64,000 bases of DNA from Prevotellaceae bacterium (GTDB lineage: Bacteria; Bacteroidota; Bacteroidia; Bacteroidales; Bacteroidaceae): NCBI GenBank assembly GCA_015256945.1, contig JABZLB010000007.1:19732-83731 (forward strand), written 5' to 3'. Positions within the stretch are counted from its first letter, which is position 1. Each line of letters starts with the position of its first letter. Both the position numbers and the translations under genes were made by a program. Positions 44,543 to 61,637 of this stretch are shown here, one piece after another. Below the pieces are notes generated by a model. It was not told where the DNA came from. It did no database searches and saw nothing but the letters and a program-made list of their open reading frames with translations.

Positions 44543-44841
44543 AAAGCAAATAATACAATAAAAATTTAAAAGTTCTCAATCAGTTTTTATGTCGTCTCTC
44601 TGCCATCGGGACATCATAACCGGCAGATGTTCACGACAGCATTGCAAAGTTATCTAAATTTATTTAAAACCTATATACAATAGTCTCACTTTTGTAATAC
44701 AAAACAGCAATTTCGTAACAAAATACATTTTATTTGCATAAAATGGTAACAAAATGTAAAAATACAAATGTTTTTCGTGGTAAAATAAATTAAAATGGCT
44801 ATTTTTGTAGATAATTGTTGAACTTGTATTACATAGCGCTT

Positions 44842-47800
44842 ATGAAAAAAATCTACTTATTAGCTGTGCTCGTAATGCTTTTGTTGCATCCCGACTTTGC
44901 CTGTGCGCAATCGGCAGTACTGAGCGAAGGCTTTGAAAATGCTGTTTTTCCGCCTGCGGGATGGAGCGTAACAGACCGTGATGCTGACCATCATGGATGG
45001 CTTTTGGCAGGGCAGGGACTAAAGGTTTACGCCGGGAAACAGCTGGCCATATCGTATACCTGCGACCCGAAAGCATACCCCATTGTAGAGTATTCACGGC
45101 AGGACAACTGGCTCATTACGCCACAAATCAACATCACAAACAACGCATTTACGCTCGAATGCTTCTATGCCGAGGAAGACAATGAGTCGCACGACTCGCT
45201 TGTTGTAAGGGTGTCAACCACAGGAAACCATCCTGCCGACTTCACCGAAAAGCTGGCAGAACTCGACGTCCGCAACGAAGAGGGAGAGGTAAACTTTCAG
45301 AAACTGACACGGTCGCTGTCGAAATTCAGCGGACAAAAAATATACATTGCCTTCGTTCATACGGGGAAAGGGGGATATGGTTTAGCCCTCGACGATATAA
45401 CCATAAGCAACAAAAAAGGGCCTCAACGGGCAGGAAGTTTTACGGTTAAGCCTGCTGCCGATGGCAATCTGAAAGCTACACTGAACTGGACAAACCCGAC
45501 AAAGAACGGACTTGGTGACAATTTAACCAGCTATCAAGTGCGTATTTATCGTGACCAGCTGCTTATTGCTACCTTAAACAAGGGAACAACAACCTACACC
45601 GATGAGCATGCAACCGCAGGCATGCACACATATAGTATAGGTATTGTTACCGATGAAGGCGAATCGGCACTGCGTACAGCCAGAGCCTGCATAGGCGAAG
45701 ACGTGCCCAGCACCGTCAGAAACCTCAGGGCCGACCCACACAAAGGCAAGGTAACACTAACATGGACGGCACCTGAAACGGGTGTAAACAAAGGCTTTAT
45801 CAACCCGCAACACCTTAAATACAGCCTGTACAAGACCACCGGGGGCGTTCAAACTACCGTGGCCGAAGGCTATGAAAAGACCACCTTTACCGAAGATATT
45901 GCCGACGGGCAGACCGTTGTTTATGAGGTTGCTGCCTCCAATGCTGCCGGAACGGGAGAGAAAACGCGCGCCAACAGCGTCATTACCTACTCGGGAAGTC
46001 AGGCCGAACTAACCGTGGGTATGCAGGCAACATCCGAGTTTACCAACAGCAGGATTCCCGTAGATGCCTATTCAAAGGCTACCGTTAGCCAAACCATATA
46101 CTATCCCCACGAGTTACAGTATGTGAAAGGAGCCATTAATCATGTTATCTTCAGGAACGCATTCAGCCAGAGTACCGACCTTACACGTCCGCTTCAAGTG
46201 TATATTGGTGAAACCGATCAGGCCGATTTGAAGTTGGGTTGGGTACCCGTGGCACAATTAAATAAGGTATACGACGACACCATAACGATGAGCAGAGGTT
46301 CGAACGATATTGATATTGTATTGTCGCAACCTTACCATTACCAGGGTAAAAACCTTGTTGTAACGGTTTATGGCGCCCGTATTGACAGGACAGCACGCTA
46401 CGCCGACCATTTCCTCGTGGAACGAACTCCTGCACATGCCAACCGTTCGCGACTGCTTTCTGGCTCGTCAAATATCAATTTAACGGCACTGCCGCAGAGT
46501 AGTGACGTTATTTCGGAAGTGCCTTACACACGGTTTGTGATGACCACTACACTTACAGGCTCGCTCCACGGCAAGGTAACCGATACGCAAGGACACGCTA
46601 TTGCCGGGGCAACAGTAACATTACCTCATTATAAACTTACCGCTATCACTGCTGAAGACGGCAGTTACGATTTTGATTTTGTGCCATCAGGAGCACAGAA
46701 TATAACCGTTTCGGCCAATGGCTTTGACGATTATTCCAGGTTGGTTACGATTGAGGAAACGGGCACAGCTCTCGATATTACGCTTCCAAAATTGCAAACT
46801 TACACCTGCCATGGCGTGGTAACGAACGACAAAAACACGCCACTGGCTGGAGCTTTAGTAGCTGTTGAAGGTTACGCAAAACAGGAAACCACTACACAAG
46901 CCGACGGCAGTTTCGTACTTTCCGGTCTTTATGCCGGCAAAAAATACACGCTAACCATCAGCAAAGCCAATTACGACGTATATGCGGAAGCCCTTAATGC
47001 CACAGCCAGCGTGAACAAAGGCACCATCGTTATGCGTCATAGCCACATTCCTGCATACGCTGTTGAAGCACAGACAACGACCGACGGTAACATGCTTAAC
47101 ATCACATGGAAGAACCCATACACACGCAAGGGGCGTACACAATGGACAATAATAGGTTCTTCCAACATCCAAACGGGTACGTCAGGTGACAGCTATTACA
47201 GTGCAGATGATTATTGCGTGGCTCACCTTTGGGACGCAAAAGACATTGCCGACTCGATGATGACGGGACAGAGCTTCATGGGTATGCGCATCTATCTGCA
47301 GGCTATTTCGGGCACGTTCACCGCACACGTATGGGAGGGCGACCGCACAAACCACAAGAGCGTAGCCCAAAAAGCCATACCCCTGTCGGCCATTAGCCGC
47401 GACGGTGGCTGGGTAAACGTAGTATTTGACAAGCCGGTAGAAATCAAGAAAGGCACTACATACATGGTGGGTATACATGTAAAAAACGCGTCAACCGACC
47501 CAATTGGTGTCAACTATAAATGGGGATCGGCGCTAAAAGGCAAGAATAATCTGAAGTTTACCGACGCTGAAGGGCATTACACTTACGACGCAAGCTATGC
47601 CTTTAACATATCTGCACACGTAGGCATTCCGGGCACAACGCTGCCCGTCGACTCAACAGATGCTTCATATTTACCAGCTTATAAGGTATACCGAAGCACG
47701 CCATCGGGACAGTGGTACAGCCTGGGTACGGCAGCTTCATGTAGTTATCAGGATACCCAATGGGCGTCATTGCCTTCAGGCCACTATGTCTACAAGGTTG

Positions 47801-49020
47801 AGGCACAATATCCTGACGGAGTCTCAACAGCAGCCTTCTCGAACGATATTACCCGCCTTATTGATACCGACGCAGGTATTTCGGCCATTGTTTCGCCCAA
47901 GAAGATGATTGAAAAACAGCCTGTTGTTGAAGTTAAAGCGTATATTAAGAACTACGGAGAGAAGCCAATACACGACGTTCCTGTTAAATTGACGGTGAAC
48001 GGAGCACCTGTTGCCAGTGCCACGGTTACGGAAATGCTTGCCAAAGACGACAGCACCCTGGTAACATTCGGCAACGTTTCGCTCGATGATAACGTGATAA
48101 ACCATATAACCCTCACCACAACACTCGGTGGAGACGGCGCAAGTAGCAACGACAGTATGACGGTAACCATTTCAAATTTACCCAATATCGCTCTGCATGC
48201 CTTTCGTTGGGATGTCTTCGGTAACGCAGGACCTATCGTTATCAACACCAATAACCCTGAGGCTACAACATTAAAACGCAGCGTAACGCCAAACGAAAGC
48301 ATCGTGGCTGCCGGTTGTATGGTGAACGGCAAATTCCATGGTTTCTCCACCACATGGCAGTCGATACCGCAGCAATACCTCGTTCTCGACACCGTAAGCT
48401 GGGCTCCTGCTGAGGCAAAACCGACGAAAGATTTCGTTCTTGACATGGATTACGATGTTACACAAGGTCGTCTTTACTGCATCGCTGCTGATACATTGAC
48501 CACAAAAACCGTGCTGGCTTCGGTTGATTCAGACTTGGGAGCTCTTACCATACTGACCGAACTTGATCATCCCTATCATGCCTTTGCCATCAATAAACAG
48601 GGCGAGATGTATGGTATTACACGCAGTGGCGATCTATATAAAATTGAGCAGATTGGACTTTTCTTTAACGAAGAACGCGTTGGAAGTACAGGTATTACTG
48701 ACGTCCGTTATTTCCAGTCGATGACATTCGACAAGAAAACCAACCGTCTGCTGTGGGTACATGCCGGCGAAAACGGCACGGGCGACCTTTATGATGTCAA
48801 TACAACTACTGGCATTGCATCACTGCTGGGGCGTGTTATCGTTGGAAACGAACCCGCCGAAGCCGTAGGTTTATACACGACAGGCGGCTCAACCGATGGC
48901 ATAAAGGTTGTAACAACAAAAGTATTGACAGAAAAATGCTACAACACCGCGGGACAACGTGTGCCCCATAGCTATCACGGCGTAGTTATTGCAGGAGGTA
49001 AAAAACAATTGCAGAAATAG
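44842..49020 (+). CDS. Large T9SS-secreted surface protein (choice-of-anchor-J-like N-domain, FN3 and CarboxypepD_reg-like domains, beta-propeller, Por CTD)
   Basis: About 1392 aa from MKKIYLL. Signal peptide, GFE..FPP.GW N-domain, GKVTDTQGHAIAGATVTL carboxypeptidase-regulatory-like repeats, C-terminal sorting-domain-like tail. Confidence 0.55.
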   Translation: MKKIYLLAVLVMLLLHPDFACAQSAVLSEGFENAVFPPAGWSVTDRDADHHGWLLAGQGLKVYAGKQLAISYTCDPKAYPIVEYSRQDNWLITPQINITNNAFTLECFYAEEDNESHDSLVVRVSTTGNHPADFTEKLAELDVRNEEGEVNFQKLTRSLSKFSGQKIYIAFVHTGKGGYGLALDDITISNKKGPQRAGSFTVKPAADGNLKATLNWTNPTKNGLGDNLTSYQVRIYRDQLLIATLNKGTTTYTDEHATAGMHTYSIGIVTDEGESALRTARACIGEDVPSTVRNLRADPHKGKVTLTWTAPETGVNKGFINPQHLKYSLYKTTGGVQTTVAEGYEKTTFTEDIADGQTVVYEVAASNAAGTGEKTRANSVITYSGSQAELTVGMQATSEFTNSRIPVDAYSKATVSQTIYYPHELQYVKGAINHVIFRNAFSQSTDLTRPLQVYIGETDQADLKLGWVPVAQLNKVYDDTITMSRGSNDIDIVLSQPYHYQGKNLVVTVYGARIDRTARYADHFLVERTPAHANRSRLLSGSSNINLTALPQSSDVISEVPYTRFVMTTTLTGSLHGKVTDTQGHAIAGATVTLPHYKLTAITAEDGSYDFDFVPSGAQNITVSANGFDDYSRLVTIEETGTALDITLPKLQTYTCHGVVTNDKNTPLAGALVAVEGYAKQETTTQADGSFVLSGLYAGKKYTLTISKANYDVYAEALNATASVNKGTIVMRHSHIPAYAVEAQTTTDGNMLNITWKNPYTRKGRTQWTIIGSSNIQTGTSGDSYYSADDYCVAHLWDAKDIADSMMTGQSFMGMRIYLQAISGTFTAHVWEGDRTNHKSVAQKAIPLSAISRDGGWVNVVFDKPVEIKKGTTYMVGIHVKNASTDPIGVNYKWGSALKGKNNLKFTDAEGHYTYDASYAFNISAHVGIPGTTLPVDSTDASYLPAYKVYRSTPSGQWYSLGTAASCSYQDTQWASLPSGHYVYKVEAQYPDGVSTAAFSNDITRLIDTDAGISAIVSPKKMIEKQPVVEVKAYIKNYGEKPIHDVPVKLTVNGAPVASATVTEMLAKDDSTLVTFGNVSLDDNVINHITLTTTLGGDGASSNDSMTVTISNLPNIALHAFRWDVFGNAGPIVINTNNPEATTLKRSVTPNESIVAAGCMVNGKFHGFSTTWQSIPQQYLVLDTVSWAPAEAKPTKDFVLDMDYDVTQGRLYCIAADTLTTKTVLASVDSDLGALTILTELDHPYHAFAINKQGEMYGITRSGDLYKIEQIGLFFNEERVGSTGITDVRYFQSMTFDKKTNRLLWVHAGENGTGDLYDVNTTTGIASLLGRVIVGNEPAEAVGLYTTGGSTDGIKVVTTKVLTEKCYNTAGQRVPHSYHGVVIAGGKKQLQK

Positions 49021-49661: not shown

Positions 49662-49735
49662 GGCGGGATAGCTCAGCTGGTTAGAGCGTCGGATTCATAA
49701 TCCGGAGGTCGTGGGTTCGGGTCCCACCCCCGCTA
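49662..49735 (+). tRNA. tRNA-Met (anticodon CAT; elongator or possibly tRNA-Ile2/lysidine type)
   Basis: GGCGGGATAGCTCAGCTGGTTAGAGCG D-arm, anticodon loop TTCATAA, T-arm GTGGG-TTCGGGT-CCCAC. The anticodon stem lacks the three consecutive G-C pairs of an initiator. The 3' 46 nt are duplicated at 61592-61637. Confidence 0.8.
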
Positions 49736-49754
49736 CGAAGGTTAAAACCTTGAA

Positions 49755-49793
49755 AATAAAGGAATTACAACGACCGTTGTAGTTCCTTTATTT
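49755..49793 (+). terminator. Element-borne terminator hairpin just downstream of the reconstituted tRNA-Met
   Basis: AAATAAAGGAA-TTACAACGACCGTTGTAG-TTCCTTTATTT: 11-bp stem with a palindromic loop. Confidence 0.5.
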
Positions 49794-49809
49794 CGTTAAT
49801 AGTCCATGT

Positions 49810-49834
49810 GGTGAACTTTTGGTGAACTTTCTGA
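49810..49834 (+). repeat. Putative integrase arm-type site, left copy (GGTGAACTTTTGGTGAACTTTCTGA)
   Basis: An identical 25-bp sequence, itself a tandem GGTGAACTTT x2, recurs at 61458-61482 just inside attR. Confidence 0.55.
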
Positions 49835-49883
49835 ACGCAAAGTTACTTCATGCAATCAGATGAAATTCCTTTGTCCTTGTTGT

Positions 49884-51005
49884 TTACTCGATATGTAATT
49901 GTAGTTCTCTCACAAGCTGCCTTATAGCAGGATTATTTTTTATCATCTTTTCTAAGAATCCTTTCTTTAATTGGATAATAGGAAAGTAAAACCTTAATAG
50001 GTGTCGTAGTTCATGCTCTATCAATTCTCTAAATTCCCATTCACCTGAGCTCTCAAACCGATGTGACAAGTATTTCTGTGCCATCTTATCAAATCGATAG
50101 AAGTTTATGAGTAGGTTCGTCTTCCCTAATTTGCCAAAACACCAAATAAATTTACGAACATCATCAAGTGACAAGAAAGAGAAGAAATACTTTTCCCTGT
50201 ATTCCCAGAAAAAACTTTTCTCAAATGCTGTTAGTTCAGCCTTAGATAGTAGCAATTTTGCCAATGCTTGCTGGCATAATTCATCGGGAACATCACGATT
50301 TGTTTTTGCCATGATGTAGAGATACTCGTTATCTGTTAGTAATTCTCGCTTGACATTGTATGCTGGTAATTCTGCCAGTCTTAAGGCTACATGAAAATAG
50401 TCGTCTTGTGCTGTGATTTCGTCTACGTATTGCTTCACATATTGCATCGGGAAGTGCCTAACAATTAGTTTCGCACTCTCTACATTATGATTCTGTTGCC
50501 ATGTATTAATAATCAAATCATACCATTTGTATTTCTGTTTGTCGGGTAAATCAGCCACGATATTCCAGTGTGTTCCCAAAAAATAAGCAGCCCAACCCTG
50601 TTCCGTTCTAATTGATGAGTTAATAAGGAATTGTAGGACTTTAAGCTGTCCATTCCATCCTATGTAGGGGAGCATGCGGCAAAGGATACGCCTGCTATTA
50701 GAATATACTCCTCGCTTTCGTAGCTTTAGGTCATTAAAGTAAGTCTGCCAAGATTTGTAATGTACTACAGGTTTAGCTGGGGTGGGATTACAACGCCAGC
50801 AAATATAAGCAGCCACCTTAGAATGGCAAGATCTTATTTTCTCAGTATCCTTCTCTGAAAGGGTATCAACCATTGCCTTACAAATGACTAAATCGGCACT
50901 ATTAGGATTGGAGTGGCTATTGGCCAGCTTCAAAATAAAATCAATCTTATCCATAACATAGTTTTTCTGCAAAGTTAAATATTGATCTATGCCATAATGC
51001 TTCAT
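49884..51005 (-). CDS. Hypothetical protein (373 aa), IME cargo, divergent from the WYL cassette
   Basis: AT-rich, predicted largely alpha-helical, no recognisable catalytic motif. It is the first gene inside attL. Confidence 0.5.
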   Translation of the reverse strand: MKHYGIDQYLTLQKNYVMDKIDFILKLANSHSNPNSADLVICKAMVDTLSEKDTEKIRSCHSKVAAYICWRCNPTPAKPVVHYKSWQTYFNDLKLRKRGVYSNSRRILCRMLPYIGWNGQLKVLQFLINSSIRTEQGWAAYFLGTHWNIVADLPDKQKYKWYDLIINTWQQNHNVESAKLIVRHFPMQYVKQYVDEITAQDDYFHVALRLAELPAYNVKRELLTDNEYLYIMAKTNRDVPDELCQQALAKLLLSKAELTAFEKSFFWEYREKYFFSFLSLDDVRKFIWCFGKLGKTNLLINFYRFDKMAQKYLSHRFESSGEWEFRELIEHELRHLLRFYFPIIQLKKGFLEKMIKNNPAIRQLVRELQLHIE

Positions 51006-51091
51006 AGATATAATGAATTTATATTTTATTTATCTTATGACACGGTATTCCATAGGAAAATACTTATCTTTGCAACATACACCAATCTAAA

Positions 51092-51893
51092 AATGATAAG
51101 TATGGACAGAAGTATGCTGAATGAGATTATGGGAAGTCTTGATAACTACCCATGCGTTTGCGACTATCGTAATGTATTCGAAGAGTATTACGAAGCGTTT
51201 GCAGACTACATTCCTAGCGGTGAAGAAGACAAAGCATTGCTGATGTTGAAACGTAAATTGTTCCTTCCTCTTAATTTGTCTGATAATGCAAATGGTATTC
51301 TAATTGTCGGTGCTAATCCTTCATACAAAGATGGTGGTCGCGACGAGAATTTTATGAAAACAACAGATGAGCTGTACCATTCAGTAGAGAAGCACTGGAA
51401 GAAAATTTCAGAAATTGCATGCCTTGGAAACAATTATCAGGCTGCCTACCTCGATCTGTTTCCAATAAAGCAAACCAATCTGGGAGACTTTGAGAAGGTC
51501 TTTCGTGCGCATAACGATATAAGGGCTAAGCTGCTGCAAGTAACTCACAAGCGTATGCTAGCTACTCGGCCTATGGTCATTATCAACCTCTTTGCCATGA
51601 CCTCTTATTATTGGGGTTTTAAGGTAGACGCTCCAGACTACTGTAACGAGGATAATCCATGGATGGGTTATAAGTTCAAGAAGATAGATGGTGAAGGGCT
51701 GGATGCATACGAAATTGTTGGCTGGGTGGATAATGCAAAGTCCATTCTTCCTAACGATGAGACAGAAAGACTAGCAAAGGGAACCGTAATTGTATTTAGC
51801 ACGAAAGCATGGGATAAACAGGTGCGAAAAGAGAAAAAGGTTGATAAGAACAAACTGCAAAAGTTATTGCAAAATCTCAACATAGAGTTGTAG
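51092..51893 (+). CDS. Hypothetical protein (~267 aa from MISMDRS) with a possible UDG-superfamily-like motif A
   Basis: The motif GILIVGANPSYKDGG resembles MUG/SMUG motif A (VVFCGINPGLSS); no clear motif B. The ORF ends 3 nt before the WYL gene start. The ORF-track start at 50982 lies in the divergent promoter and is probably too long. Confidence 0.45.
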
Positions 51894-51896
51894 CTT

Positions 51897-52820
51897 ATGT
51901 CTCGCAAGAATGCAAACCTAATCGGTCGATATGTATGGTTGGTGGATCTTCTTCGCCGATATGGGCGACTGACCTTTCAACAAATCAGCGATAGATGGGA
52001 GGAAAGTGGGCTTAGTTATGGTGAACCCTTGGTATGGCGCACTTTCCAAAATCATCGTGATGCCATCTTCGATATTTTTGGCATCAGCATCGAATGTGAG
52101 CGAAAAGGGGACTATGCGTACTACATAGAGTACCCAGAAGTGTTGGAAAATGACCATTTACGTTCGTGGCTCATCAGCAGTTATGCTACGCTCAATCAAC
52201 TTCGGGCCGACGCTTCACTTGAAGGTCGCATTATCTATGAGCAGATTCCCTCGGGTGAGAAATGGCTCACTCTTTTCTGTCAAGCTATGCGAGAAAGTAA
52301 AAAGGTCCGCATAATGCATCGGGGATTTCAGAAATCTGAGCCAATTACTATAGCAATAGAGCCTTATTGTCTGAAAGTAGTGAAACGCAGATGGTATATT
52401 GTTGCTCGCAAGCTGACCGAGTCCAAGAATTACGCTTTCCGAATTTATGCTCTCGACCGCATCGTTGCGGCTACTATTACAGAAGAACCATTTAAGTATG
52501 ATAAGCGATTTGACATCAACAAATTCTTCGAGGGTTGTTGTGGTATAATGCTATCAGATGCACCTGTAGAGCGTGTCGTAGTGAAATCGTATTTTTATGG
52601 TCCAGACTATCTCCGTTCATTGCCACTCCACGCTTCGCAGAAAGAATTGCCCACCAATGACTCTTCATTTGCAATGTTCGAATATCATGTTAAGCCTACC
52701 TTTGATTTTTACTTAAACTTGTTAGGTCAGGCCGACCAATTGGAGGTTATTTCCCCTAAACATGTACGTGAGGAGATGGCTAATCTTGTAAAACACATGG
52801 CTTCTTATTATGGAGATTAA
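51897..52820 (+). CDS. WYL-domain transcriptional regulator (HTH-WYL-WCX; BrxR/CapW-like)
   Basis: N-terminal wHTH (RYVWLVDLLRRYGRLTFQQISDRWEE), central WYL domain (RRWYIVARKL...FRIYALDRIVAA), C-terminal extension. Confidence 0.7.
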   Translation: MSRKNANLIGRYVWLVDLLRRYGRLTFQQISDRWEESGLSYGEPLVWRTFQNHRDAIFDIFGISIECERKGDYAYYIEYPEVLENDHLRSWLISSYATLNQLRADASLEGRIIYEQIPSGEKWLTLFCQAMRESKKVRIMHRGFQKSEPITIAIEPYCLKVVKRRWYIVARKLTESKNYAFRIYALDRIVAATITEEPFKYDKRFDINKFFEGCCGIMLSDAPVERVVVKSYFYGPDYLRSLPLHASQKELPTNDSSFAMFEYHVKPTFDFYLNLLGQADQLEVISPKHVREEMANLVKHMASYYGD

Positions 52821-52924
52821 TATTGCTGAAAAGGATAGATACTTGCTTGTGGGCCGTAATCTATCCTTTTTTAGCTTCATTTATTGATGGTTGTAAATAG
52901 GATATGATGAACATTTTTGAATTT

Positions 52925-54352
52925 CTATCTTCTGAACCTTGGCCTATTCCTTACCTCTTCTTGCTGCTTCTGCTTTTTTTCTAGTCTATCTTGATACCAA
53001 CTGAAGTTATCCATCACGTTCTTTATTTCTGTCTTACCTTTCTCGTGTTCAAACAGATTGAGGAAGGGACGAGTGAAGGTGATGAGGAAGTTGGTACCAC
53101 TGCGGCGATCGTGCGATTCGATGGTGAGGAAATCGTTGACGGCAGAGGCCTGAGGGAAGGTAAAGCACTGTGCCTTGGTGTCGCGGGCAAACTGAATCAC
53201 GGCTTTGATGGCGTTTTGCCAAATGGCGGTGAACTGACTAAGGAAATCGGCAAGACCCGCTTTCATCGTCTCAATAGTTTGGTCACGCTGCTGTAATTCC
53301 TGTTTGAGATTCTCTTCCCGATTCTTTGACTTGGTGAGCAATCCCTTGTAAATGCACTCTTGCTTGTTGCATTCTTCCAGCCAAAAGTCTGCTCGCTCCT
53401 GTTCCTTAGCGATCTCTTCCTTATAGGTGGCTGTCAGACTCTCCACCTGCCGAGCAACTACTTGCGGGATTGCTGCCACCTGCTTCTTCATCTCTATATT
53501 CTCAGCTTCAAGCTGTGCATACTTACCCTTACCAGCAAGATTAGCAAGACCCGACAGGATGGCGTTGCCATTCTCACGGTCTGCCCTTTGTTGCTTCTGC
53601 TTAATCTCCTTGTCAAGAGCTTCGCTCTGTTGGGCCTTTGCTTCATTCTCCTTTTCCAGTTCGATTTTCTTTGCCTTTGCTTCCTCCATCTCTCGCTTCT
53701 GTTTCGCCACGATGTAGTCGTTACGTTCAAGATGCTGTTTGCCTGTTTCCATCTTCGAGTCTCCACGTTCCATCCCAAGAACCTCCGCTACCATGTCCTG
53801 CATTTCGCTGATGTCGTCACTGTTGAGTTTGTAGGATTTTCCTGTATTATGATTCATCCAGTCCCAGATGATATGGGCATGATAGTTGGACTTCCATGAG
53901 GAAGTATCATCGGGGGCTGCAAAATGTCCTTCATCATTATGAATATGTATCTGCAAGACGGTGATACCGAACCTTGACTGACACAGGGAAGCAAAGTGCT
54001 GTAGCTCCTCCATTGTGGTGTCCTGCTTGCAGACAATCACACCCTCACGCAATGGAGTGCAGCCTGCTATCTTCGTAATTTTCCCAGTCTTCTTATTGAC
54101 CTTTTCACGTTCCTTTGTCTGCATCGCTCTGCCAGTCTTTTCCTTTACCATCTTGCCGATGTTGTCATAATACTGTTGCAGGGAAAGTTCCTGCTGTTGG
54201 TCGGCTATCCACGACTGATTACAGGAAGTCAGGTCTTCCCTGATGTAAAGTTTGTCTGCATTGATATGAGCAAGATACTCCTTTGCTCTCTTATTGTGAG
54301 CCTCACTCTGCCCGATGTTGCATGGTTTGATATGTATAGAAGTCTTTGCCAT
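52925..54352 (-). CDS. Mobilization relaxase (MobV/Mob_Pre-like) with C-terminal coiled coil
   Basis: Begins MAKTSIHIKPCNIGQSEAHNKR. It has the HxH-type motif NYHAHIIWDW and a long E/K/Q-rich coiled-coil C-terminus. The start is taken at MAKTS. Confidence 0.65.
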   Translation of the reverse strand: MAKTSIHIKPCNIGQSEAHNKRAKEYLAHINADKLYIREDLTSCNQSWIADQQQELSLQQYYDNIGKMVKEKTGRAMQTKEREKVNKKTGKITKIAGCTPLREGVIVCKQDTTMEELQHFASLCQSRFGITVLQIHIHNDEGHFAAPDDTSSWKSNYHAHIIWDWMNHNTGKSYKLNSDDISEMQDMVAEVLGMERGDSKMETGKQHLERNDYIVAKQKREMEEAKAKKIELEKENEAKAQQSEALDKEIKQKQQRADRENGNAILSGLANLAGKGKYAQLEAENIEMKKQVAAIPQVVARQVESLTATYKEEIAKEQERADFWLEECNKQECIYKGLLTKSKNREENLKQELQQRDQTIETMKAGLADFLSQFTAIWQNAIKAVIQFARDTKAQCFTFPQASAVNDFLTIESHDRRSGTNFLITFTRPFLNLFEHEKGKTEIKNVMDNFSWYQDRLEKKQKQQEEVRNRPRFRR

Positions 54353-54412
54353 AATTAAAATCATTAATTCATTCGATAATACAATAATATTATAATCTCT
54401 TATTATTCTCAT

Positions 54413-54641
54413 AAAGGTTCTTAGGGATAAGCCCTAAGCGGAGAGTCCAGAGAGAGGGTCACGCTCTGGTCAGGGGTCTTGGGGCAGATGCCCATAAGTG
54501 GAGGGTGCAGGGAGAGAGTCACTCCCGCCGGTTCTCCAAGGCAGCGCCTTGGGCCCACAACTACGAAAGGCTTTAGCCGTGTAGTTATAGTGGGCTATAA
54601 CAAGGGCAGAGCCCTGTTCGTTCACCCCAACCCTTCAGCGA
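54413..54641. promoter_or_regulatory. Candidate oriT / mob promoter region
   Basis: GC-rich, immediately upstream of the relaxase. It holds two ~38-bp imperfect direct repeats (~54425-54465 and ~54485-54525) and inverted repeats GTTATAG-TGGG-CTATAAC and GGGC-AGA-GCCC (~54584-54614). Confidence 0.4.
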
Positions 54642-55322
54642 TTATGGACTTCCCCGGCACTTGATTTTATCAATGAGGTATTCGTTAATGTCACGCTTAA
54701 TGAAGCCGTTGTCCACTTTGAACTGGTCGCCAAAGTGCTCGTTCCAATAATCATAAGCCATACTATCAGGGAAAAGTATTACACGTTTACCTCGAAGCCT
54801 GTTCATCATTCGGTCGGTAAGCAGATAACTATTACCTACAGCTATCCAGTCTAGTGATGGCTCTGCAAGCGTTCCCAGTAAAGCAGTCTTTTCCTCCATG
54901 ACTACAGCTATGGGGTTACTAGAAAGCAGGTGCTCGCCAAAGAACACCTCCCAGTCTGTATAATAGTCGAAGCAATACCACGAATAAAGATGGTCCGTAA
55001 TAGGGTCTTTACGGAGAATGCTGCCGTTATCTACATCAAAGTATATTACTTCACCGCCAACAACCTTTCCGCTTTCATTGATACGGGGTAATACTGATCC
55101 GTAATGTCCGTTGATAACAGTGCTCACTGCCCCTAAGTGGAATCGTGAGATCAGATCGTCAATCTTTCGCATCATAGAGGCATCATAGTTCACCAGCTTG
55201 TCGAGATAATCCGTCAGGGAAGAGTGATGCAGGCTAATATCCGACTTGGGTATTTCGATGAGTAACCGTTCATACACTGGCGCCTTTGTTGCCATTATAC
55301 GCTTTAATTCGTCCTGTTCCAT
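54642..55322 (-). CDS. Hypothetical protein (226 aa), possibly a Toprim-like/primase accessory domain
   Basis: Position between the AAA/HTH gene and the mob/oriT region. It has a weak Toprim-like acidic patch (VILFPDSMAYDYW). Confidence 0.35.
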   Translation of the reverse strand: MEQDELKRIMATKAPVYERLLIEIPKSDISLHHSSLTDYLDKLVNYDASMMRKIDDLISRFHLGAVSTVINGHYGSVLPRINESGKVVGGEVIYFDVDNGSILRKDPITDHLYSWYCFDYYTDWEVFFGEHLLSSNPIAVVMEEKTALLGTLAEPSLDWIAVGNSYLLTDRMMNRLRGKRVILFPDSMAYDYWNEHFGDQFKVDNGFIKRDINEYLIDKIKCRGSP

Positions 55323-55393
55323 AATCTTCGTGATTTAGTTTTATGCAGTTTATGCACTTATGCATACTGCATAAAGTGAATAAAGTGCATAAA

Positions 55394-56368
55394 TCAGCTA
55401 TTCAACAGCCTTGAAACCTTACTTTGGGTGATGCCACACTCCTTGGCAATATCCTGCTGGCGCATGCCACGGGCAGAAAGTTCCTTGACTCTTTGCCTTA
55501 GTTCGTCTCGTTCATTGGTGGTCTCTGCACTCAGATGGGCAACTTCCGCATCATATCCCCGAAAGGTGAAACACAGATTACCCTCTGCATTTTTGCCTCG
55601 CTCGTAGAGAGCTACGTTATCAGAATCGAGAATCACCTCACCATTGCGCCATTTGCACTGCTTGACATAGACAAGCGATTTATCCTTTTGGGATTGCGCC
55701 AGCCCTACCGCATCATCTATGAGTTGATTCAGCTTGGCAGAGCCTTGGATGGCCGAAAGGGAAAGAGGAAGGGTACCTGAATACATCTTGGGCACATGAT
55801 TCAGTACAACCAGCGTCCAGTTATACTTCTTCTTTAGCCCATTGAGTGAAGCCATGAGTGAACCCGCATCGGCTCCTTTGTCGAGCGATTGACTAAGAGC
55901 CGTGATATTGTCGATAAATACTACCTCGGCTAAATTTGCCACCGCAGCCTGTTCTATGCCTTGCAGAACATTGTCGATAGGATTGTCCCTGTCCATTTCC
56001 GCACGAAAGAAGGTCGGAGGAAAGTTGGCTGACTCGTAGCGCAAGCACAACTGGCGCAGCGTCATCTCAAAGTCAGCATAGAGCACTCGTTTCCCTTTGG
56101 CAGCAATTTCCCTTGCCACCTGCATGGCAAAGATGGTCTTGCCGATACCCGACTGTCCGAAGATGATGCACAGATCACCTTCGAGGACAATATTGGGATA
56201 GAGAACTATAAGGGGAGGAAGCGACAGCCCTTTGATCAGACAGTCGTTCATGGATGCCACATGAAAGCTACCTGCATCTACCGCCTCTTTTACTTGAAGC
56301 TGCTGAAATGAAGAAAGGATATAGTCTTCATCTGGTGGCTTGGGGATTGTTTTCACAAGTTCGTCCAT
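55394..56368 (-). CDS. AAA/RecA-like ATPase with a C-terminal HTH (replicative or primase-helicase loader-like protein of mobilizable elements)
   Basis: Walker A motif GQSGIGKT, Walker B motif VVFIDN. The C-terminal HTH is MRQQDIAKECGITQSKVSRLL. Confidence 0.6.
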   Translation of the reverse strand: MDELVKTIPKPPDEDYILSSFQQLQVKEAVDAGSFHVASMNDCLIKGLSLPPLIVLYPNIVLEGDLCIIFGQSGIGKTIFAMQVAREIAAKGKRVLYADFEMTLRQLCLRYESANFPPTFFRAEMDRDNPIDNVLQGIEQAAVANLAEVVFIDNITALSQSLDKGADAGSLMASLNGLKKKYNWTLVVLNHVPKMYSGTLPLSLSAIQGSAKLNQLIDDAVGLAQSQKDKSLVYVKQCKWRNGEVILDSDNVALYERGKNAEGNLCFTFRGYDAEVAHLSAETTNERDELRQRVKELSARGMRQQDIAKECGITQSKVSRLLNS

Positions 56369-56379
56369 ATTGCTCCACC

Positions 56380-56676
56380 TTATATATTAGTATTGCTCAT
56401 GGATGAGCCTTGCGTGATGAGCGCATCCACCTCCTCCTTGGAATAGAGGTTGCGACGTCCAATCTTATGCACATGAACCTCACCACGCTTCTCCATACGC
56501 CAGAGCGTAGTATAAGTGATGTGCAGGCGTGCGCAAAGCTCGTCACGGGTTAAATACTCGACATCGTCCTTTGGTTTCTGTCCTGTCAGAAGGTTCTTGC
56601 CAACCATAGCCTCTAATACTTCTGCAATCGCCTCCTTGAGATCGTCTTTTTGCAGCATGATAAAATTTCCTTGCAT
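56380..56676 (-). CDS. Small HTH DNA-binding protein (excisionase/MerR-like)
   Basis: 98 aa. The motif LTRDELCARLHITYTTLWRMEKRG is typical of Xis/AlpA-type HTH proteins. Confidence 0.5.
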   Translation of the reverse strand: MQGNFIMLQKDDLKEAIAEVLEAMVGKNLLTGQKPKDDVEYLTRDELCARLHITYTTLWRMEKRGEVHVHKIGRRNLYSKEEVDALITQGSSMSNTNI

Positions 56677-56913
56677 ATCGTGAATGTTTAAAATGATGCC
56701 GCAAAAGTATCATGGAATTACATGGAATTATGCCCACATGGTACCCACATGGGTACTATATGGATATGGAAGAGAAATAAAAATGCCCATGCAAGCAAAG
56801 GCTCACATGGGCTTATTAAATTTTTGTGTGTTTGGATAGTTTAGCTTATATTTTATAAGTTGGGATACAAAAAAGGAGTTTCAAAACACCTCCTCTCTGC
56901 ATTTTACTGCACT

Positions 56914-57141
56914 TTACTTCTTTCCTTTATATAACCTCTTCATCCATAGGAACTCTAAAACGTAAATAAGTATTCCCCAACATAGATAAAATCCGCCTTC
57001 GTAAGACATTGTCGATAAGGCATCCATCCATAACATACTATATAAAGTTAACACAAGAATACTACCTAAAACGAATAGTATGTTCTTATGGAAGTCTGGG
57101 TTGTAAGTGAGAAATACCAAGATGAAGCCTCCACTATACAA
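56914..57141 (-). CDS. Small 2-TM membrane protein (75 aa), hypothetical
   Basis: Two hydrophobic helices; no homology recognised. Confidence 0.3.
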   Translation of the reverse strand: MYSGGFILVFLTYNPDFHKNILFVLGSILVLTLYSMLWMDALSTMSYEGGFYLCWGILIYVLEFLWMKRLYKGKK

Positions 57142-57339
57142 GGCCTCACTAAAACTATATATAGCAGGCCACTTGCGAAATCGTCCTTAGTTCTAAAGTT
57201 TGCCTCGATTATCTCTACAACAACTAGGTATATAATGGCAAAAAAATGATGGAAATAATTTTCTTAATGTTGTTCATTACGTAATATTCTATATAATCTT
57301 GCCATTGGCAAATATATTAATTAGAATCTAAGGTAAAAG

Positions 57340-58170
57340 CTACTTGAAAATTGACTCTACGACTTCATGTCCTGAAGGTAGTTTGCCAGTCTTGTTTGTA
57401 TAGGTGTTTTTGCAGGTCGCAAGTCCGGAAACATCAAATAAGGTTTCAAAGGGCTTCCAATATGTTTTCTTCTTTCCGTCTTGCTCTGCCTGTGAAAGAT
57501 TCAGATATTCGCTGGCACAGTCGGCAAAGTAAGCAAGAAGAAACTTGGACTTTTGCCAATGGTATTCCTTATCGCACAGGCCTAAGCCAATAGCTTTGCT
57601 AATAATTTGCTGAGCTTCTTTTGATTGAAGCTCGACAGGCATTTGCTTTTCTTCATTTTTCGGTATATTTGGAGTATTCGTAACCTGTATGTCTGTGCCA
57701 AAGAAGTGGTTCCAGCCTTCCTGTGTCTTGATGCCGTTCTGTATGCTCGTCTTAATCAACTGCTCTTTTAAATCAGTAAAGCTGTTCTGTTCCAACCGTT
57801 CCTTAGCTTCCTCCGCCTTTATAACAATCTTCGATACAAGCGTTTCATACAAGTTGCCACAGACAAGCCAATACGATAGAGTGTTCTTTATTCTGCCATA
57901 TCGAAAGAAATTCATGTTGCCCTCATGCAGCAAAAATACCATCGCACCAACAATGGTATCTCCAACTCTCGTGTAATTGTTAGAAAACAATATCGGGAAA
58001 TCGTGCTGACTTACTATATTTTCTGACCCGTTTGACTTTGAAGTATAGGCATATAGATGCATAACCCCTTCAAAGCTCTGCTTCTTTAGGTCGTTGATGA
58101 TACGGTCTGCTGCTATCTTGTTGGCTTGATACCAAGCCTCTGCGGATTCTTTATCTAAGTCTTTGCCCAT
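57340..58170 (-). CDS. Hypothetical protein (276 aa), IME cargo immediately downstream of abiEii
   Basis: No signal peptide and no motif recognised. It lies 30 bp downstream of the AbiEii gene on the same strand. Confidence 0.45.
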   Translation of the reverse strand: MGKDLDKESAEAWYQANKIAADRIINDLKKQSFEGVMHLYAYTSKSNGSENIVSQHDFPILFSNNYTRVGDTIVGAMVFLLHEGNMNFFRYGRIKNTLSYWLVCGNLYETLVSKIVIKAEEAKERLEQNSFTDLKEQLIKTSIQNGIKTQEGWNHFFGTDIQVTNTPNIPKNEEKQMPVELQSKEAQQIISKAIGLGLCDKEYHWQKSKFLLAYFADCASEYLNLSQAEQDGKKKTYWKPFETLFDVSGLATCKNTYTNKTGKLPSGHEVVESIFK

Positions 58171-58200
58171 TGCATCCTGTTTATTTGTTTATATAGTTTC

Positions 58201-59208
58201 TTATCCTCTAAATCTATCTCGTAGTACTTTTATCCTATCCAATAGATCCTCAAAAGAAAGATGGTCACCATAGATGAAATCGTGTGTCATTTGCTCGTAG
58301 TCATTTCTCCATTCGTTTAAGACGGATGAAGGAGGGTAAAAGTCGATGGTGTCTCTTTTCAGTTTGTCATAATCAGCATATTTCAGAGCATAGAATGTAC
58401 GGCGGTGTTCTATTATATCGTCATAGAGTTGCTTGTCTTCCAAGGCTTGAATACCAAATTCGGTATCCATCAGCTTTTCCAAATCGTATAAGTGGCGGCT
58501 CATTCTCATAGAACGAGGATGCTCTTTCTGAAATTCCTCGCACAAAAGAAAAGCTTTTTCAAGGAATGTCCTTGTTGGCAGCACAGTTCTGAATGTCACC
58601 TTACAATCATCATCTTCAGGAAATATCTGAGAAATATAAGATTGCAGATCAACTTCTTCTGTAGGCTCTGCCATTGACAAGCAACTAATCTCTATTTTCA
58701 CCCAAGGGGAAACATAATTGCTACTGTTTGGTATAATACTCTTGTAGTCAACCATGATGACAGTAGGATCCTTGTCGGAGTCTATGGGCTTTAGACCATC
58801 CTTTGTTTCCACTTCTGTTACGTTTCTTACGTTATAATCAACAACTCCCAGTTGGTTCAACGCCTGTTCTATTTTAGACTTCAATACATCTTGGATATAG
58901 CTACGAGATTTCTTCCTAAGGCGTTCCCTTTGGCTTTTGGATGTGGATGATATTGCGAAATCTCCTTCTCGTCTTATAGATAAATCAATATCCTCACTGA
59001 AACGGTCTATCAATCCGAATCCCTTAGAAAGCGATGTACCACCCTTGAAATTAAGCAGATGCGCAATAGAGGTCATGGATAGAGCCTTGAGCACCATTGT
59101 CACCCACCAGTCTTTTTCGATGGCGGTAGGCGACAAGTGCCTTTCTCTGCTAACTGCATTTAGCATAGCCAAACGCTCTTGTATGTTATGCTGTTGCCAA
59201 TGTATCAT
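58201..59208 (-). CDS. abiEii: AbiEii/AbiGii-family nucleotidyltransferase toxin (type IV TA / abortive infection)
   Basis: DUF1814 signature FKGGTSLSKGFGLIDRFSEDIDL; 335 aa. Confidence 0.75.
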   Translation of the reverse strand: MIHWQQHNIQERLAMLNAVSRERHLSPTAIEKDWWVTMVLKALSMTSIAHLLNFKGGTSLSKGFGLIDRFSEDIDLSIRREGDFAISSTSKSQRERLRKKSRSYIQDVLKSKIEQALNQLGVVDYNVRNVTEVETKDGLKPIDSDKDPTVIMVDYKSIIPNSSNYVSPWVKIEISCLSMAEPTEEVDLQSYISQIFPEDDDCKVTFRTVLPTRTFLEKAFLLCEEFQKEHPRSMRMSRHLYDLEKLMDTEFGIQALEDKQLYDDIIEHRRTFYALKYADYDKLKRDTIDFYPPSSVLNEWRNDYEQMTHDFIYGDHLSFEDLLDRIKVLRDRFRG

Positions 59209-59212
59209 ATCC

Positions 59213-59821
59213 TTATTTGGTTATTTCCTTAAAAAAATTCTGCATCCATGCCGGGGCCAAAGATATATCTTTCTTTATAAGCTGGGCTTCTGCTGGATTG
59301 TCTTGAATAAGCCTGTATATGGCAGACATTTCTTCATTGGTCACGTTTCCTTTCCCAATATTGCGTAATGCCTGCACAAGCATTGCCATCATTTTGCTTT
59401 TATAAGCGAAGTTTCGGGGCACGCTTCGGATGAAACTTATTTCACTACCATCGACCTTTACAGTTCTTGGAGAGCCCGTAGTTAGATAGTTTACCTTAGT
59501 CGGAACCTGTGTTGATAGCCCTAAGATATTAAGAGCTGCGGCACCTGTCGGCATAATCTCAACTTGATCACGTTTGGCAATGGCTTCAGCTATCTCATAT
59601 AACGATGGCTTTAATGGACCAAACTTAGTAGCAACCGACTTACAGTAAATGCCAGGCGATAAACGCTCGATTAATCCCTTTTGTTCTGCTATACTTAATA
59701 CCTGCTGGACATAATTAGCACTACTTATGTCCGTGAAGTCGCTAACAAAAAGCACACAAGGTGCTTTCATCTTGTCTAAACGACCAAGTATTAACTCTGT
59801 ACTACCAGCTTGATTTAACAT
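59213..59821 (-). CDS. abiEi: AbiEi-like antitoxin / transcriptional regulator partner of AbiEii
   Basis: About 200 aa, located 4 bp upstream of abiEii on the same strand. The size and position are typical of AbiEi/DUF6088-type partners. Confidence 0.5.
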   Translation of the reverse strand: MLNQAGSTELILGRLDKMKAPCVLFVSDFTDISSANYVQQVLSIAEQKGLIERLSPGIYCKSVATKFGPLKPSLYEIAEAIAKRDQVEIMPTGAAALNILGLSTQVPTKVNYLTTGSPRTVKVDGSEISFIRSVPRNFAYKSKMMAMLVQALRNIGKGNVTNEEMSAIYRLIQDNPAEAQLIKKDISLAPAWMQNFFKEITK

Positions 59822-59924
59822 TCGTTTGTAGGAATTATTGACAATATTTCATAGGCAAAGATAACTATTCTATAGCTATATGCAAAATATTCCTTTAATT
59901 TTTCTGCCCCATGCGGCACTTTTT

Positions 59925-61421
59925 TCAAATTGAAGCCAATAATTCTTCGCGTTCAGCCTCAGTCATACTCTTCAAAAGCGTCAAGAGCTCCTGTTTGCTT
60001 GTAGCTTGTTGGCTACTCTTTTCCCTTTCATTAAGCAGGTACCAGTTATATTCCACCATTTTTTCCAAAGGGTAAGCACCAATGTAGTTCGAAGTTATGT
60101 CGCCAGAGCTGCTATGCCCCATACTATCACTGATGTATTTGTAGGGCACCTTGCCAGAATTGTTCAGATTGGTGGCGAAACTGTGGCGAGCCCATGTGGA
60201 GGTAGGCTTTTGCTCCAAACCAAGAATATCCGCAACCTTCCCCATGTGCTTTCCTATATACTTGTTGTATCGTTGAATCACCCAAAGTTCCTTGTCGGGC
60301 ATGATAAGTGTAGGCAAGATAGGGAATACTCGTTTGCCCAACTTCGGTTCATTGCCATATTCCTCGATTATTTTCTTTAGTTCTGGAGTAATGGGAAATA
60401 TCACTTCGCTTGCACTCTCGTTTCTGTCATGCGTTTTCTGGCGGTAGAAGCGAAATTGCTTACCGTGTGTGGCGAAATACCATTCATCATACTCCAGCCG
60501 TAAAGTGTCTGCGAGGTTCTGCCCATCACCAAGATACATGAAAAGGAACAATCCCACGTCACGGAACACAGCTTCCTTTTCATGGGAATAGAATTGTTCT
60601 TTGCCGTTCTCATCTTTAGCTTCTTTCCTCTCCCAGAAATCATAGAGCTTGCGCATAGTTGCGACATCAAGGAACTCATGCTTCCTGCTATTGGACTTGT
60701 TATAGCCTGTGTCCTTGAACATTTCTCGGGTGTCACCTTTGATTAACCCTTGCTCAATGCAGATGTTCACAATGGCTCTGAATGTACGGAGACTGATGCC
60801 AATGGTTGTGGCACTCAATCCGTACTTCTTTAAGGCTTTTGACCATTTCAAGATGAAAGCCCTGTCAATATCGCCAAACTCAACATTGCTTCCCATTGTT
60901 TTGACAAAGCGACGCTTCACATCTACATTGGTTCTGGCAGTACCCAACTTGTCAATCTTTCTGTCCTCTATGTATTTATCCCAAACAGAATAGATAGTCC
61001 GCTCTTCTGGAGTGATGCCGCTGAAACGCTCTTGTAATTTCTTTAGAGTGAAGATGCCGTCTTCAACAAGTTTGTTTACCATCAACTCAACCCTTAATAT
61101 GCGTGCTCTCAGTTCCTTTCGCTCGTTAGCGTTTTTATTGCGACCTAGACGTTCAAGCTCACAAAGCATCTTCCACTCATCCAACTTGTATTTCTTGCCA
61201 ATGCGCAAGTAAACCTTTTTACCATTATATTGGATTCTGATAGCAGCTGGGAGTTCTTGCTGATCATCTCCACTGGCTCTTCGAGGATCCAGCATAAGCG
61301 TGCCTGTAATACTACCATTTGAAGAGACAAACTTGGCAAAAGCGGTCTCTCCGCGGTCTTTATACTGTTTATTTGACAAAAACAGCTTATCGGTGAACTT
61401 TCTGAAATTTTCCTCCATCAT
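59925..61421 (-). CDS. int: Tyrosine site-specific integrase
   Basis: C-terminal catalytic region ARHSFAT ... MGHSSSGDITSNYIG with an N-terminal SAM-like/arm-binding domain. It lies adjacent to attR. Confidence 0.85.
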   Translation of the reverse strand: MMEENFRKFTDKLFLSNKQYKDRGETAFAKFVSSNGSITGTLMLDPRRASGDDQQELPAAIRIQYNGKKVYLRIGKKYKLDEWKMLCELERLGRNKNANERKELRARILRVELMVNKLVEDGIFTLKKLQERFSGITPEERTIYSVWDKYIEDRKIDKLGTARTNVDVKRRFVKTMGSNVEFGDIDRAFILKWSKALKKYGLSATTIGISLRTFRAIVNICIEQGLIKGDTREMFKDTGYNKSNSRKHEFLDVATMRKLYDFWERKEAKDENGKEQFYSHEKEAVFRDVGLFLFMYLGDGQNLADTLRLEYDEWYFATHGKQFRFYRQKTHDRNESASEVIFPITPELKKIIEEYGNEPKLGKRVFPILPTLIMPDKELWVIQRYNKYIGKHMGKVADILGLEQKPTSTWARHSFATNLNNSGKVPYKYISDSMGHSSSGDITSNYIGAYPLEKMVEYNWYLLNEREKSSQQATSKQELLTLLKSMTEAEREELLASI

Positions 61422-61457
61422 AAAATGTAGTGTTTATAGGGGTTGCAGAGATAAATC

Positions 61458-61482
61458 GGTGAACTTTTGGTGAACTTTCTGA
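61458..61482 (+). repeat. Putative integrase arm-type site, right copy
   Basis: GGTGAACTTTTGGTGAACTTTCTGA, identical to 49810-49834. Confidence 0.55.
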
Positions 61483-61591
61483 CCTCAATTCTGTGCAAAT
61501 TTACGGAATTTCAAGAAATCTACAAAATAAATAACTAACTAATTATCAGCTATTTGCAATCTTTTGCAATTTTGAGAAACACCCATAAATA

Positions 61592-61637
61592 GGATTCATA
61601 ATCCGGAGGTCGTGGGTTCGGGTCCCACCCCCGCTAC
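61592..61637 (+). repeat. attR: 46-bp duplicate of the tRNA-Met 3' end
   Basis: Identical to 49691-49736. Confidence 0.85.

Follow-up and report, generated by a model that had tools for sequence, protein, structure and literature searches.

A mobile gene cassette of Bacteroidales that couples a WYL regulator to a putative DNA glycosylase of the uracil-DNA glycosylase fold: a candidate base-excising anti-phage system

Does a three-gene cassette carried by a mobile element of a Prevotellaceae bacterium (order Bacteroidales) represent a phage-defence system that has not been described before? The cassette lies in a stretch of 64,000 nucleotides (contig JABZLB010000007.1, positions 19,732 to 83,731 of the forward strand; hereafter the window) and consists of a gene for a transcription regulator with a WYL domain, the gene directly upstream of it (open reading frame B, ORF-B) and a divergently oriented gene (ORF-A). 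The original prediction held that the regulator and two uncharacterized partner proteins could form a novel defence system. We followed up this suggestion by sequence comparison and structure prediction, and the whole case is computational. The data are best read as those of an accessory module that spreads horizontally, in which ORF-B is co-transcribed with the regulator and ORF-A is transcribed divergently. As it pairs a sensor or regulator of the DNA-damage type with an enzyme predicted to have the uracil-DNA glycosylase fold, we regard the cassette as a good candidate for a new base-excising anti-phage system. The three genes are located as follows:

49884-50954, minus strand: ORF-A, 356 aa from the probable start M18 (longest open reading frame 49884-51005, 373 aa), on the basis of the ORF list and the starts of homologues
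51093-51893, plus strand: ORF-B, 266 aa, putative DNA glycosylase with the fold of the uracil-DNA glycosylase (UDG) superfamily, within a longer plus-strand open reading frame (50982-51893)
51897-52820, plus strand: WYL-WCX transcription regulator, 307 aa, its ATG 3 nt past the ORF-B stop

This layout departs in some details from the one proposed originally. The ORF-B gene is real, but it had been placed at 51092-51893 with a length of 267 aa, a frame that contains 27 stops; the in-frame ATG lies at 51093. The spacing of 3 nt towards the regulator is exact (the ORF-B stop ends at 51893 and the ATG starts at 51897). The divergent orientation of ORF-A was recovered as well; its proposed length of 373 aa and the shared promoter of ~90 bp are probably to be revised. 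ORF-A homologues begin at M18, which is invariant, and a Bacteroides-type -7 box falls between M1 and M18, so that 356 aa is probably the true extent. The gap between ORF-A and ORF-B, which would be 87 bp with the longest ORF-A, then probably measures 138 bp (50955-51092).

The relatives of ORF-B were found in Bacteroidales only. A direct search yielded 14 clusters (among 5.8 billion) and a profile search at least 240, none of which carried a Pfam domain. Within an alignment of 69 members the residues R54, N75, P76, S77, W102, Y119, D121-L-F-P124, L148, P160, Y173-W174, P189-W190, G192-Y193 and G210 are invariant, and Y119-x-D121-L-F-P124 and P189-W190-x-G192-Y193 form conserved blocks. Directly after strand 1 (residues 69-72) the protein carries the sequence G73-A-N75-P76-S77, with N75, P76 and S77 invariant and G73 kept in at least 90% of the 69 sequences; in most distant members it reads GINPS. 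Motif A of the UDGs has the general form G-x-[D/N/A/E]-P-x and holds the residue that activates or positions the water. It is GINPG in family 2 and GMNPG in family 3 (PMC4787834), and the ORF-B sequence resembles this MUG/TDG-like catalytic motif both in position and in form. The AlphaFold2 model obtained from the 69-member alignment (pLDDT 87.9, pTM 0.88) predicts an alpha/beta fold with a central parallel sheet, as found in UDG families 1-6. The figures tabled with this model were 7.9 for TDG and for Family-4 UDG, 7.8 for Family-5 UDG, 7.7 for BdiUng, 7.6 for MUG, 7.2 for UdgX, 6.2 for SMUG1, 6.1 for Vaccinia D4 and 5.7 for SMUG2. A Foldseek search with the model likewise ranked TDG, SMUG1, UdgX, family-4 UDG and MUG at the top, with weak statistics (best E 0.05). 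The model thus suggests that ORF-B represents a new family of the UDG superfamily and is a putative DNA glycosylase.

At the level of sequence both partner proteins stand apart. ORF-B had no match in Pfam (E <= 0.1), PADLOC, NCBIfam, PHROGs or the PDB sequences, and ORF-A had none in these five collections either; the family profile of ORF-B found nothing in the PDB at E <= 10. In PADLOC-DB v2 no family matched ORF-A or ORF-B at E <= 0.1, a database of 2023 that is older than the base-excision systems Brig and Dag. This agrees with the original prediction that neither partner shows a known defence-family signature. The qualification 'uncharacterized' holds for the sequences of both, but no longer for the 266-aa protein, given its UDG-superfamily fold and motif A.

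The regulator contains a WYL and a WCX domain (Pfam, 1e-11 and 1e-5), and each of the 11 partner regulators that were examined has both. Its first 110 residues are conserved, yet in 11 family members no Pfam model for a helix-turn-helix (HTH) matched this segment at E <= 0.1, and the PDB profile matches begin at residue 114 or beyond. Thus, of the HTH-WYL-WCX architecture that had been assigned, the WYL and WCX parts are borne out and the HTH rests on analogy. When the WYL-WCX profile of the regulator family was compared with the PDB, DriD and PafBC were both recovered at 2e-11, CapW at 9e-4 and BrxR at 0.018-0.05. Judged by these profiles, the closest solved relatives of the regulator are DriD and PafBC, activators that are themselves activated by single-stranded DNA (ssDNA), and not BrxR or CapW, with which it had been grouped before. 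The latter two are WYL proteins that repress defence operons such as those of BREX and CBASS. Regulators with a winged HTH, a WYL and a WCX domain have been shown to bind palindromes of ~19-20 bp and to use ssDNA as effector (PMC11662680, PMC10693628). DriD binds at sites that extend over the place where a -35 element is missing (PMC13004042), which makes activation in the present case at least as plausible as repression. The view that the regulator is a standard repressor therefore loses ground: its profile lies nearer to the activators, and the layout of the promoters fits activation equally well.

Which part of the cassette is conserved? We gathered 43 loci (indicated by L numbers), scanned their ORFs with hidden Markov models (HMMs) for ORF-A, ORF-B and WYL and merged the duplicates, which left 27 informative distinct loci. 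The WYL-WCX gene adjoins ORF-B directly in 20 of these, in both gene orders and down to ~25-30% identity. The close clade (at least 47% identity) has ORF-B first, followed by the WYL gene after a 3-nt gap, and the distant clade (25-33% identity) has the WYL gene first, overlapping ORF-B by 8-23 nt. The gene arrangement is more than chance, as genomic contexts that are unrelated to each other share it at protein identities of 54-78%. The trio is a conserved cargo module that is mobile. Its constant core is the pair of ORF-B and WYL, and ORF-A occurs in part of the family only. Given the linkage counts, ORF-B appears as the effector-like constant and the WYL gene as frequent but dispensable, like other defence-associated WYL regulators.

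Some loci deviate from this arrangement. In the P0005 clade (84 member sequences; L003 9012-11210, L004 and L023) an IS30-like transposase has taken the place of ORF-A and the promoter. Of the WYL gene downstream, these three loci retain a frameshifted remnant of 109 residues, and their ORF-B is intact. In L033 (8957-10639) WYL and ORF-B form a single ORF of 560 aa; the junction coincides with the usual gene overlap and a 1-nt assembly error would suffice to produce it, so this seeming Rosetta-stone fusion was treated as weak evidence. L006 (475-2457, minus strand) and L042 (2364-5023, minus strand) have another WYL-WCX gene, placed back-to-back with the WYL-ORF-B pair. It is followed by unrelated proteins that match no family, one of 258 aa in L006 and two of 299 and 228 aa in L042; pairs of WYL and unknown effectors seem to cluster. 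The near-identical copies of the cassette in L018, L022, L024 and L025 (BNJ* contigs of up to 2.18 Mb) have ORFs broken by many frameshifts, which are most likely long-read assembly errors and not signs of pseudogenes.

ORF-A is more restricted, with 5 close homologues and 174 distant ones (HMMER scan of 1.84 billion representatives); 0 of 50 homologues scanned carry a Pfam domain. Full-length relatives are present in the clade of the window and in L005, L012, L019 and L032, the latter with the co-directional order WYL-B-A and an ORF-B of 28% identity. L001 retains an 87-aa remnant. The C-terminal module of ORF-A (~120 residues) recurs in a gene downstream of the WYL-ORF-B pair in L017, L028, L033, L040 and L042, and in the last four it is fused to a degenerate FtsK/SpoIIIE-like ATPase; the L006 version of the FtsK-like protein has an intact Walker A and a different N-terminus. 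These are weak matches (E ~1e-5 against a small database, with the FtsK matches under the Pfam cut-off), but the same position recurs. The predicted structure of ORF-A is an all-alpha, HEAT/ARM-like solenoid for which there is no family model; considering that the fold search used a low-confidence model, only the designation 'helical repeat' is retained. The N-terminal domain of the downstream protein in L017 (motif IIGNECAF) was considered as an ORF-B-like domain and rejected, as hhalign gave no support and Pfam nothing.

The 138-bp region between ORF-A and ORF-B holds the following elements:

50970-50977, minus strand: -7 box for ORF-A, TAACTTTG on the minus strand, read from the sequence; same box in L005
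50988-51006, no strand: palindrome O1, TATG-N11-CATA, centred around -33 of the ORF-A promoter; kept in L005, L012 and L018-L025
51036-51054, no strand: palindrome O2, TATG-N11-CATA, centred around -32 of the ORF-B promoter; kept in L001, L005, L013 and L018-L025
51064-51071, plus strand: -7 box for the ORF-B/WYL operon, TATCTTTG, read from the sequence; conserved in L001, L005 and L013

The Bacteroides -7 promoter consensus is TAnnTTTG. O1 and O2 (19 bp each) lie 48 bp apart, each around 9-10 bp upstream of its -7 box, in a symmetrical layout. Both promoters are without the TTTG at -33, and the palindromes sit in its place. TATG-N11-CATA has three matches in the 64-kb window versus 1.27 expected, and two of these fall inside the 138-bp region, where ~0.003 would be expected. 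According to an alignment of the upstream regions both palindromes are conserved across loci at 47-78% protein identity; the clade with the WYL gene first has inconsistent palindromes only, none of the O1/O2 type. O1 and O2 are candidate operators of the WYL regulator, and the layout would be compatible with activation as exerted by DriD as well as with repression. An inverted repeat at 51060-51071 / 51092-51103 was discarded as operator: it overlaps the -7 box and the start codon, and L005, L013 and L001 do not conserve it. A scan for sigma-70 promoters and terminators gave 8 promoter-like sites versus 9.7 expected, Bacteroides promoters being outside the models of the scan.

Where does the cassette reside? 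In the window it forms part of an integrative and mobilizable element (IME) with these features:

49662-49736, plus strand: tRNA-Met (CAT), identified with ARAGORN; the last 46 nt (49691-49736) represent attL
58201-59208, minus strand: AbiEii (PADLOC 6e-95; Pfam too)
59213-59821, minus strand: AbiEi (PADLOC 3.5e-57; Pfam too)
59925-61421, minus strand: tyrosine recombinase (integrase) of the element, on the basis of NCBIfam XerD/XerC-type matches and its position beside attR
61592-61637, plus strand: attR, a displaced copy of the tRNA-Met 3' end (exact-repeat search, 46-bp direct repeat of 49691-49736)

The repeat search delimits an element of ~11.9 kb (49737-61637) integrated at tRNA-Met, and the trio starts 148 bp inside attL. 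The GC content of the cassette is 0.34-0.41, versus 0.48-0.50 for the chromosome to the left and 0.44-0.48 for the rest of the element. The 46-bp repeat, the integrase and the PADLOC assignments corroborate the earlier claim that the cassette is cargo on a mobile element that also carries AbiE, a known defence or toxin-antitoxin pair.

The other loci show a variety of surroundings. The tRNA-Met IME with AbiE was found in the window, L018 and L021, and in L010 and L030 the cassette adjoins AbiEii. L019 is a mobilizable element of another kind that encodes VapE, Toprim primase, NikA and MobA relaxase, and in which the cassette lies directly beside Avs4, and the island of L001 includes a type I restriction-modification (RM) system, GmrSD and an SLFN/AlbA ATPase. 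L014 and L017 have KilA-N and Bro-N neighbours, which correspond to the PADLOC candidates PDC-S22 and PDC-S13. In L028, L040 and L042 a variable chromosomal hotspot between catalase and carB is occupied by WYL-ORF-B, a DUF4143/AAA_14 ATPase and the protein with the ORF-A domain and the FtsK-like part. The variable extras of this hotspot are PIN/RelB, a reverse transcriptase, a fragment of DNA-pol-III-alpha and a further WYL pair. Transposases, GmrSD, integrases, relaxases, VapE and AbiEi are the commonest families in the 137 neighbouring ORFs. The cassette thus adjoins known defence genes again and again: AbiE three times, Avs4, and GmrSD plus type I RM.

The family is rare. A scan of one genome per species (185,579 species; two short peptide patterns) gave 6 loci, all in Bacteroidales, and no relatives were found in IMG/VR or among the PLSDB plasmids. 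INPHARED contained one phage-like contig with a member of the ORF-B family (L043, MT835917.1, 14323-15009; HMM 1e-30, motif ILITGINPSF), positioned at the contig end after terminase-, portal-, capsid- and tail-sized genes and with no WYL gene upstream. Taken together, the distribution of the cassette is that of accessory, conflict-related cargo.

Several other features of the element and its flank were noted. Just within the two element ends, at 49810-49834 (74 bp from attL) and 61458-61482 (110 bp from attR), the 25-bp sequence GGTGAACTTTTGGTGAACTTTCTGA is repeated exactly and in direct orientation (0 expected by chance), and it is in turn made up of an internal GGTGAACTTT tandem; it may represent an arm-type site of the integrase or the ends of an inner element. 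A 495-aa protein (52925-54412, minus strand) without match in the family libraries has N-terminal His-rich motifs (HIHNDEGH and YHAHIIWDW) and a long coiled-coil tail, which suggests that it is the relaxase or mobilization protein of the element. Directly downstream of AbiEii, on the same strand, lies a gene for a DUF6043 protein (276 aa, 57340-58170, minus strand) that may be the third gene of the AbiE module. A gene for a 1401-aa surface-type protein with signal peptide (44815-49020, plus strand) lies directly upstream of the tRNA-Met integration site and flanks the element in L021 as well.

How could the cassette work? We favour, with a confidence that does not go beyond an even chance, a WYL-gated defence glycosylase system that is akin in principle to Brig1, an anti-phage DNA glycosylase with the UDG fold (Hossain et al. 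2024, PMC11078745), and to Brig2 and Brig3, and that combines ssDNA sensing, base removal and assistance by ORF-A. A dimer of the regulator would bind the two 19-bp palindromes at -33 of both divergent promoters, and its WYL domain would sense ssDNA that arises from the replication of foreign DNA or from DNA damage. The ssDNA-bound regulator would then turn on both promoters, either by derepression or by a DriD-like activation. ORF-B would excise bases, most likely non-canonical ones, from the DNA of the invading phage, and the abasic sites left behind would stop phage replication, as has been described for the abasic sites made by Brig1 (PMC11078745). ORF-A, or the domain relatives that are fused to FtsK-like ATPases elsewhere, might target or modulate ORF-B. 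A more elaborate version, which we put forward tentatively and consider rather doubtful, is a multi-component immunity specific to Bacteroidales, in which a WYL activator triggered by ssDNA controls new UDG-fold glycosylases and a HEAT-like or FtsK-fused partner guides the enzyme, directed at a base chemistry of gut phages (e.g. crAss-like) that is unseen by the known defence glycosylases.

A number of observations weigh against the interpretation as a defence glycosylase. All evidence is computational. ORF-B matches no UDG model of Pfam or PADLOC, and motif B (of the HPSPLS / MPSSAR / HPSPRN type) is not recognisable after the last core strand: strand 232-235 is followed by FSTKAW in the close clade and by MEYVM in the distant clade, with no conserved [HM]PS. 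No significant sequence similarity to Brig1 was detected: hhalign with the 69-sequence profile aligned 14 residues around motif A at E 0.078, and BLASTP gave nothing. For this comparison the Brig1 sequence was taken from the supplement of PMC11078745, and its numbering agrees with the published Y121, N145 and E147. Placed side by side by eye, LGLNPG and F-E147-L-Y-P of Brig1 stand opposite VGANPS and L-D121-L-F-P of ORF-B, which is a lead and not a test. The nearest solved relatives of the regulator govern DNA-damage responses, not immunity; six loci carry ORF-B without a WYL gene and many are without ORF-A. The tally of defence neighbours is a raw listing of loci, and the member on the phage-like contig may be either a prophage-borne defence 'moron' or a phage gene for DNA metabolism.

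The strongest alternative, although in our view an unlikely one, is a DNA-damage or repair module, in which an activator of the DriD/PafBC type induces a repair glycosylase (ORF-B) and a helper (ORF-A) that protect the DNA of the host or the element. The profile of the regulator, nearest to DriD and PafBC (2e-11) and well ahead of CapW and BrxR, is in line with this, and so are the operators overlapping -33 of promoters without TTTG, like the DriD sites over the missing -35 (PMC13004042). Furthermore, UDG-fold enzymes are classically repair enzymes (PMC4787834), and SiwR provides a precedent of a WYL activator of adjacent damage-response genes. What speaks against repair is the distribution. 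The 6 loci in 185,579 species (one genome each) make the family very rare and patchy, its members sit beside defence genes as cargo of low GC content, either on mobile elements or in hotspots that vary, and the family diverges fast, down to ~25% identity; such rarity, mobile low-GC setting and divergence are not the pattern of housekeeping repair. To our knowledge, many Bacteroidales lineages are without a classical SOS circuit.

The tight coupling or overlap of the gene pair with interchangeable order, and the AbiE and PIN/RelB modules that adjoin it, would also suit a toxin-antitoxin, abortive-infection or addiction module, in which ORF-B is a toxin that damages the DNA of its own cell and is held by WYL and/or ORF-A, thereby stabilising the element or killing infected cells. 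We consider this quite improbable: at least 6 loci, and the IS-disrupted clade as well, keep an intact ORF-B in the absence of WYL, so that it is probably not strongly toxic alone. That this clade kept ORF-B while WYL decayed is a mixed indication, and odd if uncontrolled ORF-B were lethal. In addition, no antitoxin-like small protein is present, and WYL-WCX proteins are known as transcription factors, not as antitoxins.

Ranked lower again is a role in the establishment of mobilizable elements or in anti-defence. The WYL domain would then sense the entering ssDNA, and the glycosylase would repair or edit incoming DNA (e.g. deaminated bases) or attack competitors. WYL domains do bind ssDNA and genes for relaxase or mobilization adjoin in three contexts (window, L019 and L032), but many members reside in chromosomal hotspots or beside transposases with no relaxase. 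Finally, the idea that the partners are ordinary housekeeping proteins of the element (replication or partition factors), inspired by the replication-type genes on the same IME (AAA_25/DnaB-like ATPase and DUF6371 in Pfam), is hardly credible considering that neither protein resembles a replication or partition family and that the trio moves apart from the IME backbone into at least five unrelated contexts.

Base-excision defence is a recent theme (Brig1 dates from 2024, and Dag, Brig2 and Brig3 from 2025-26); the cases described to date involve single enzymes or an enzyme plus a hydrolase. If our interpretation as a defence glycosylase is correct, ORF-B would constitute a third, sequence-unrelated family of UDG-fold defence proteins and a glycosylase under a dedicated WYL sensor, a pairing not found in the literature searched. 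The cassette would moreover be a candidate system of gut Bacteroidales, a group in which current models capture little of the repertoire against phages. With two operators and two divergent promoters in 138 bp, the cassette offers a compact test case for DriD-like activation by a defence-associated WYL regulator. If it functions in repair instead, it would represent a mobile WYL-controlled damage response in a phylum with little-known SOS-independent responses.

How does the cassette compare to known systems? With BrxR and CapW the regulator shares its size (~300 aa), the WYL-WCX architecture, the layout with a bidirectional promoter and the association with defence islands, but the profile similarity is much weaker and the partner system is none of those described. 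DriD and PafBC give the best WYL plus WCX profile matches (2e-11), bind ~19-20 bp sites over a missing -35/-33 and control adjacent or divergent genes. They belong, however, to chromosomal DNA-damage regulons, whereas the cassette regulator travels as cargo and is linked to one effector gene only, and its putative DNA-binding domain at the N-terminus has diverged too far to be matched by the HTH models of Pfam. ORF-B differs from the UDGs of families 2 and 3 (MUG/TDG, SMUG) by an identity of ~10%, the absence of a Pfam UDG match and a motif B that is not recognisable, and it has two additions, a helical bundle of ~60 residues at the N-terminus and a beta-hairpin insertion with the invariant PWxGY. 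In comparison with the defence glycosylases, the homologues of Brig1 are mostly from Actinobacteria and the ORF-B family is from Bacteroidales only; both Brig1 and Brig2, the latter also a UDG-fold anti-phage glycosylase (10.1101/2025.10.29.685425), are single genes, whereas ORF-B is coupled to a WYL regulator and often to a third gene. Our literature search found no description of a WYL regulator coupled to a UDG-like gene, nor of the ORF-B family. Comparable in organization is Brig3-BapA, a defence glycosylase with an accessory hydrolase that removes glucose from glucosyl-5hmC (10.64898/2026.02.25.707755). Here too a glycosylase is accompanied by an accessory protein from the same locus, but BapA is a hydrolase and ORF-A is predicted to be HEAT-like and helical, with no catalytic signature, and the abstract and section headings of the Brig3-BapA paper name no WYL regulator. 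Since glycosylases of the UDG fold that act in defence are known, as are WYL regulators associated with defence, the cassette is not categorically new: with Brig1, Brig2 and Brig3 already described, the 'novel system' of the original prediction shrinks from a wholly new kind to a new family or variant.

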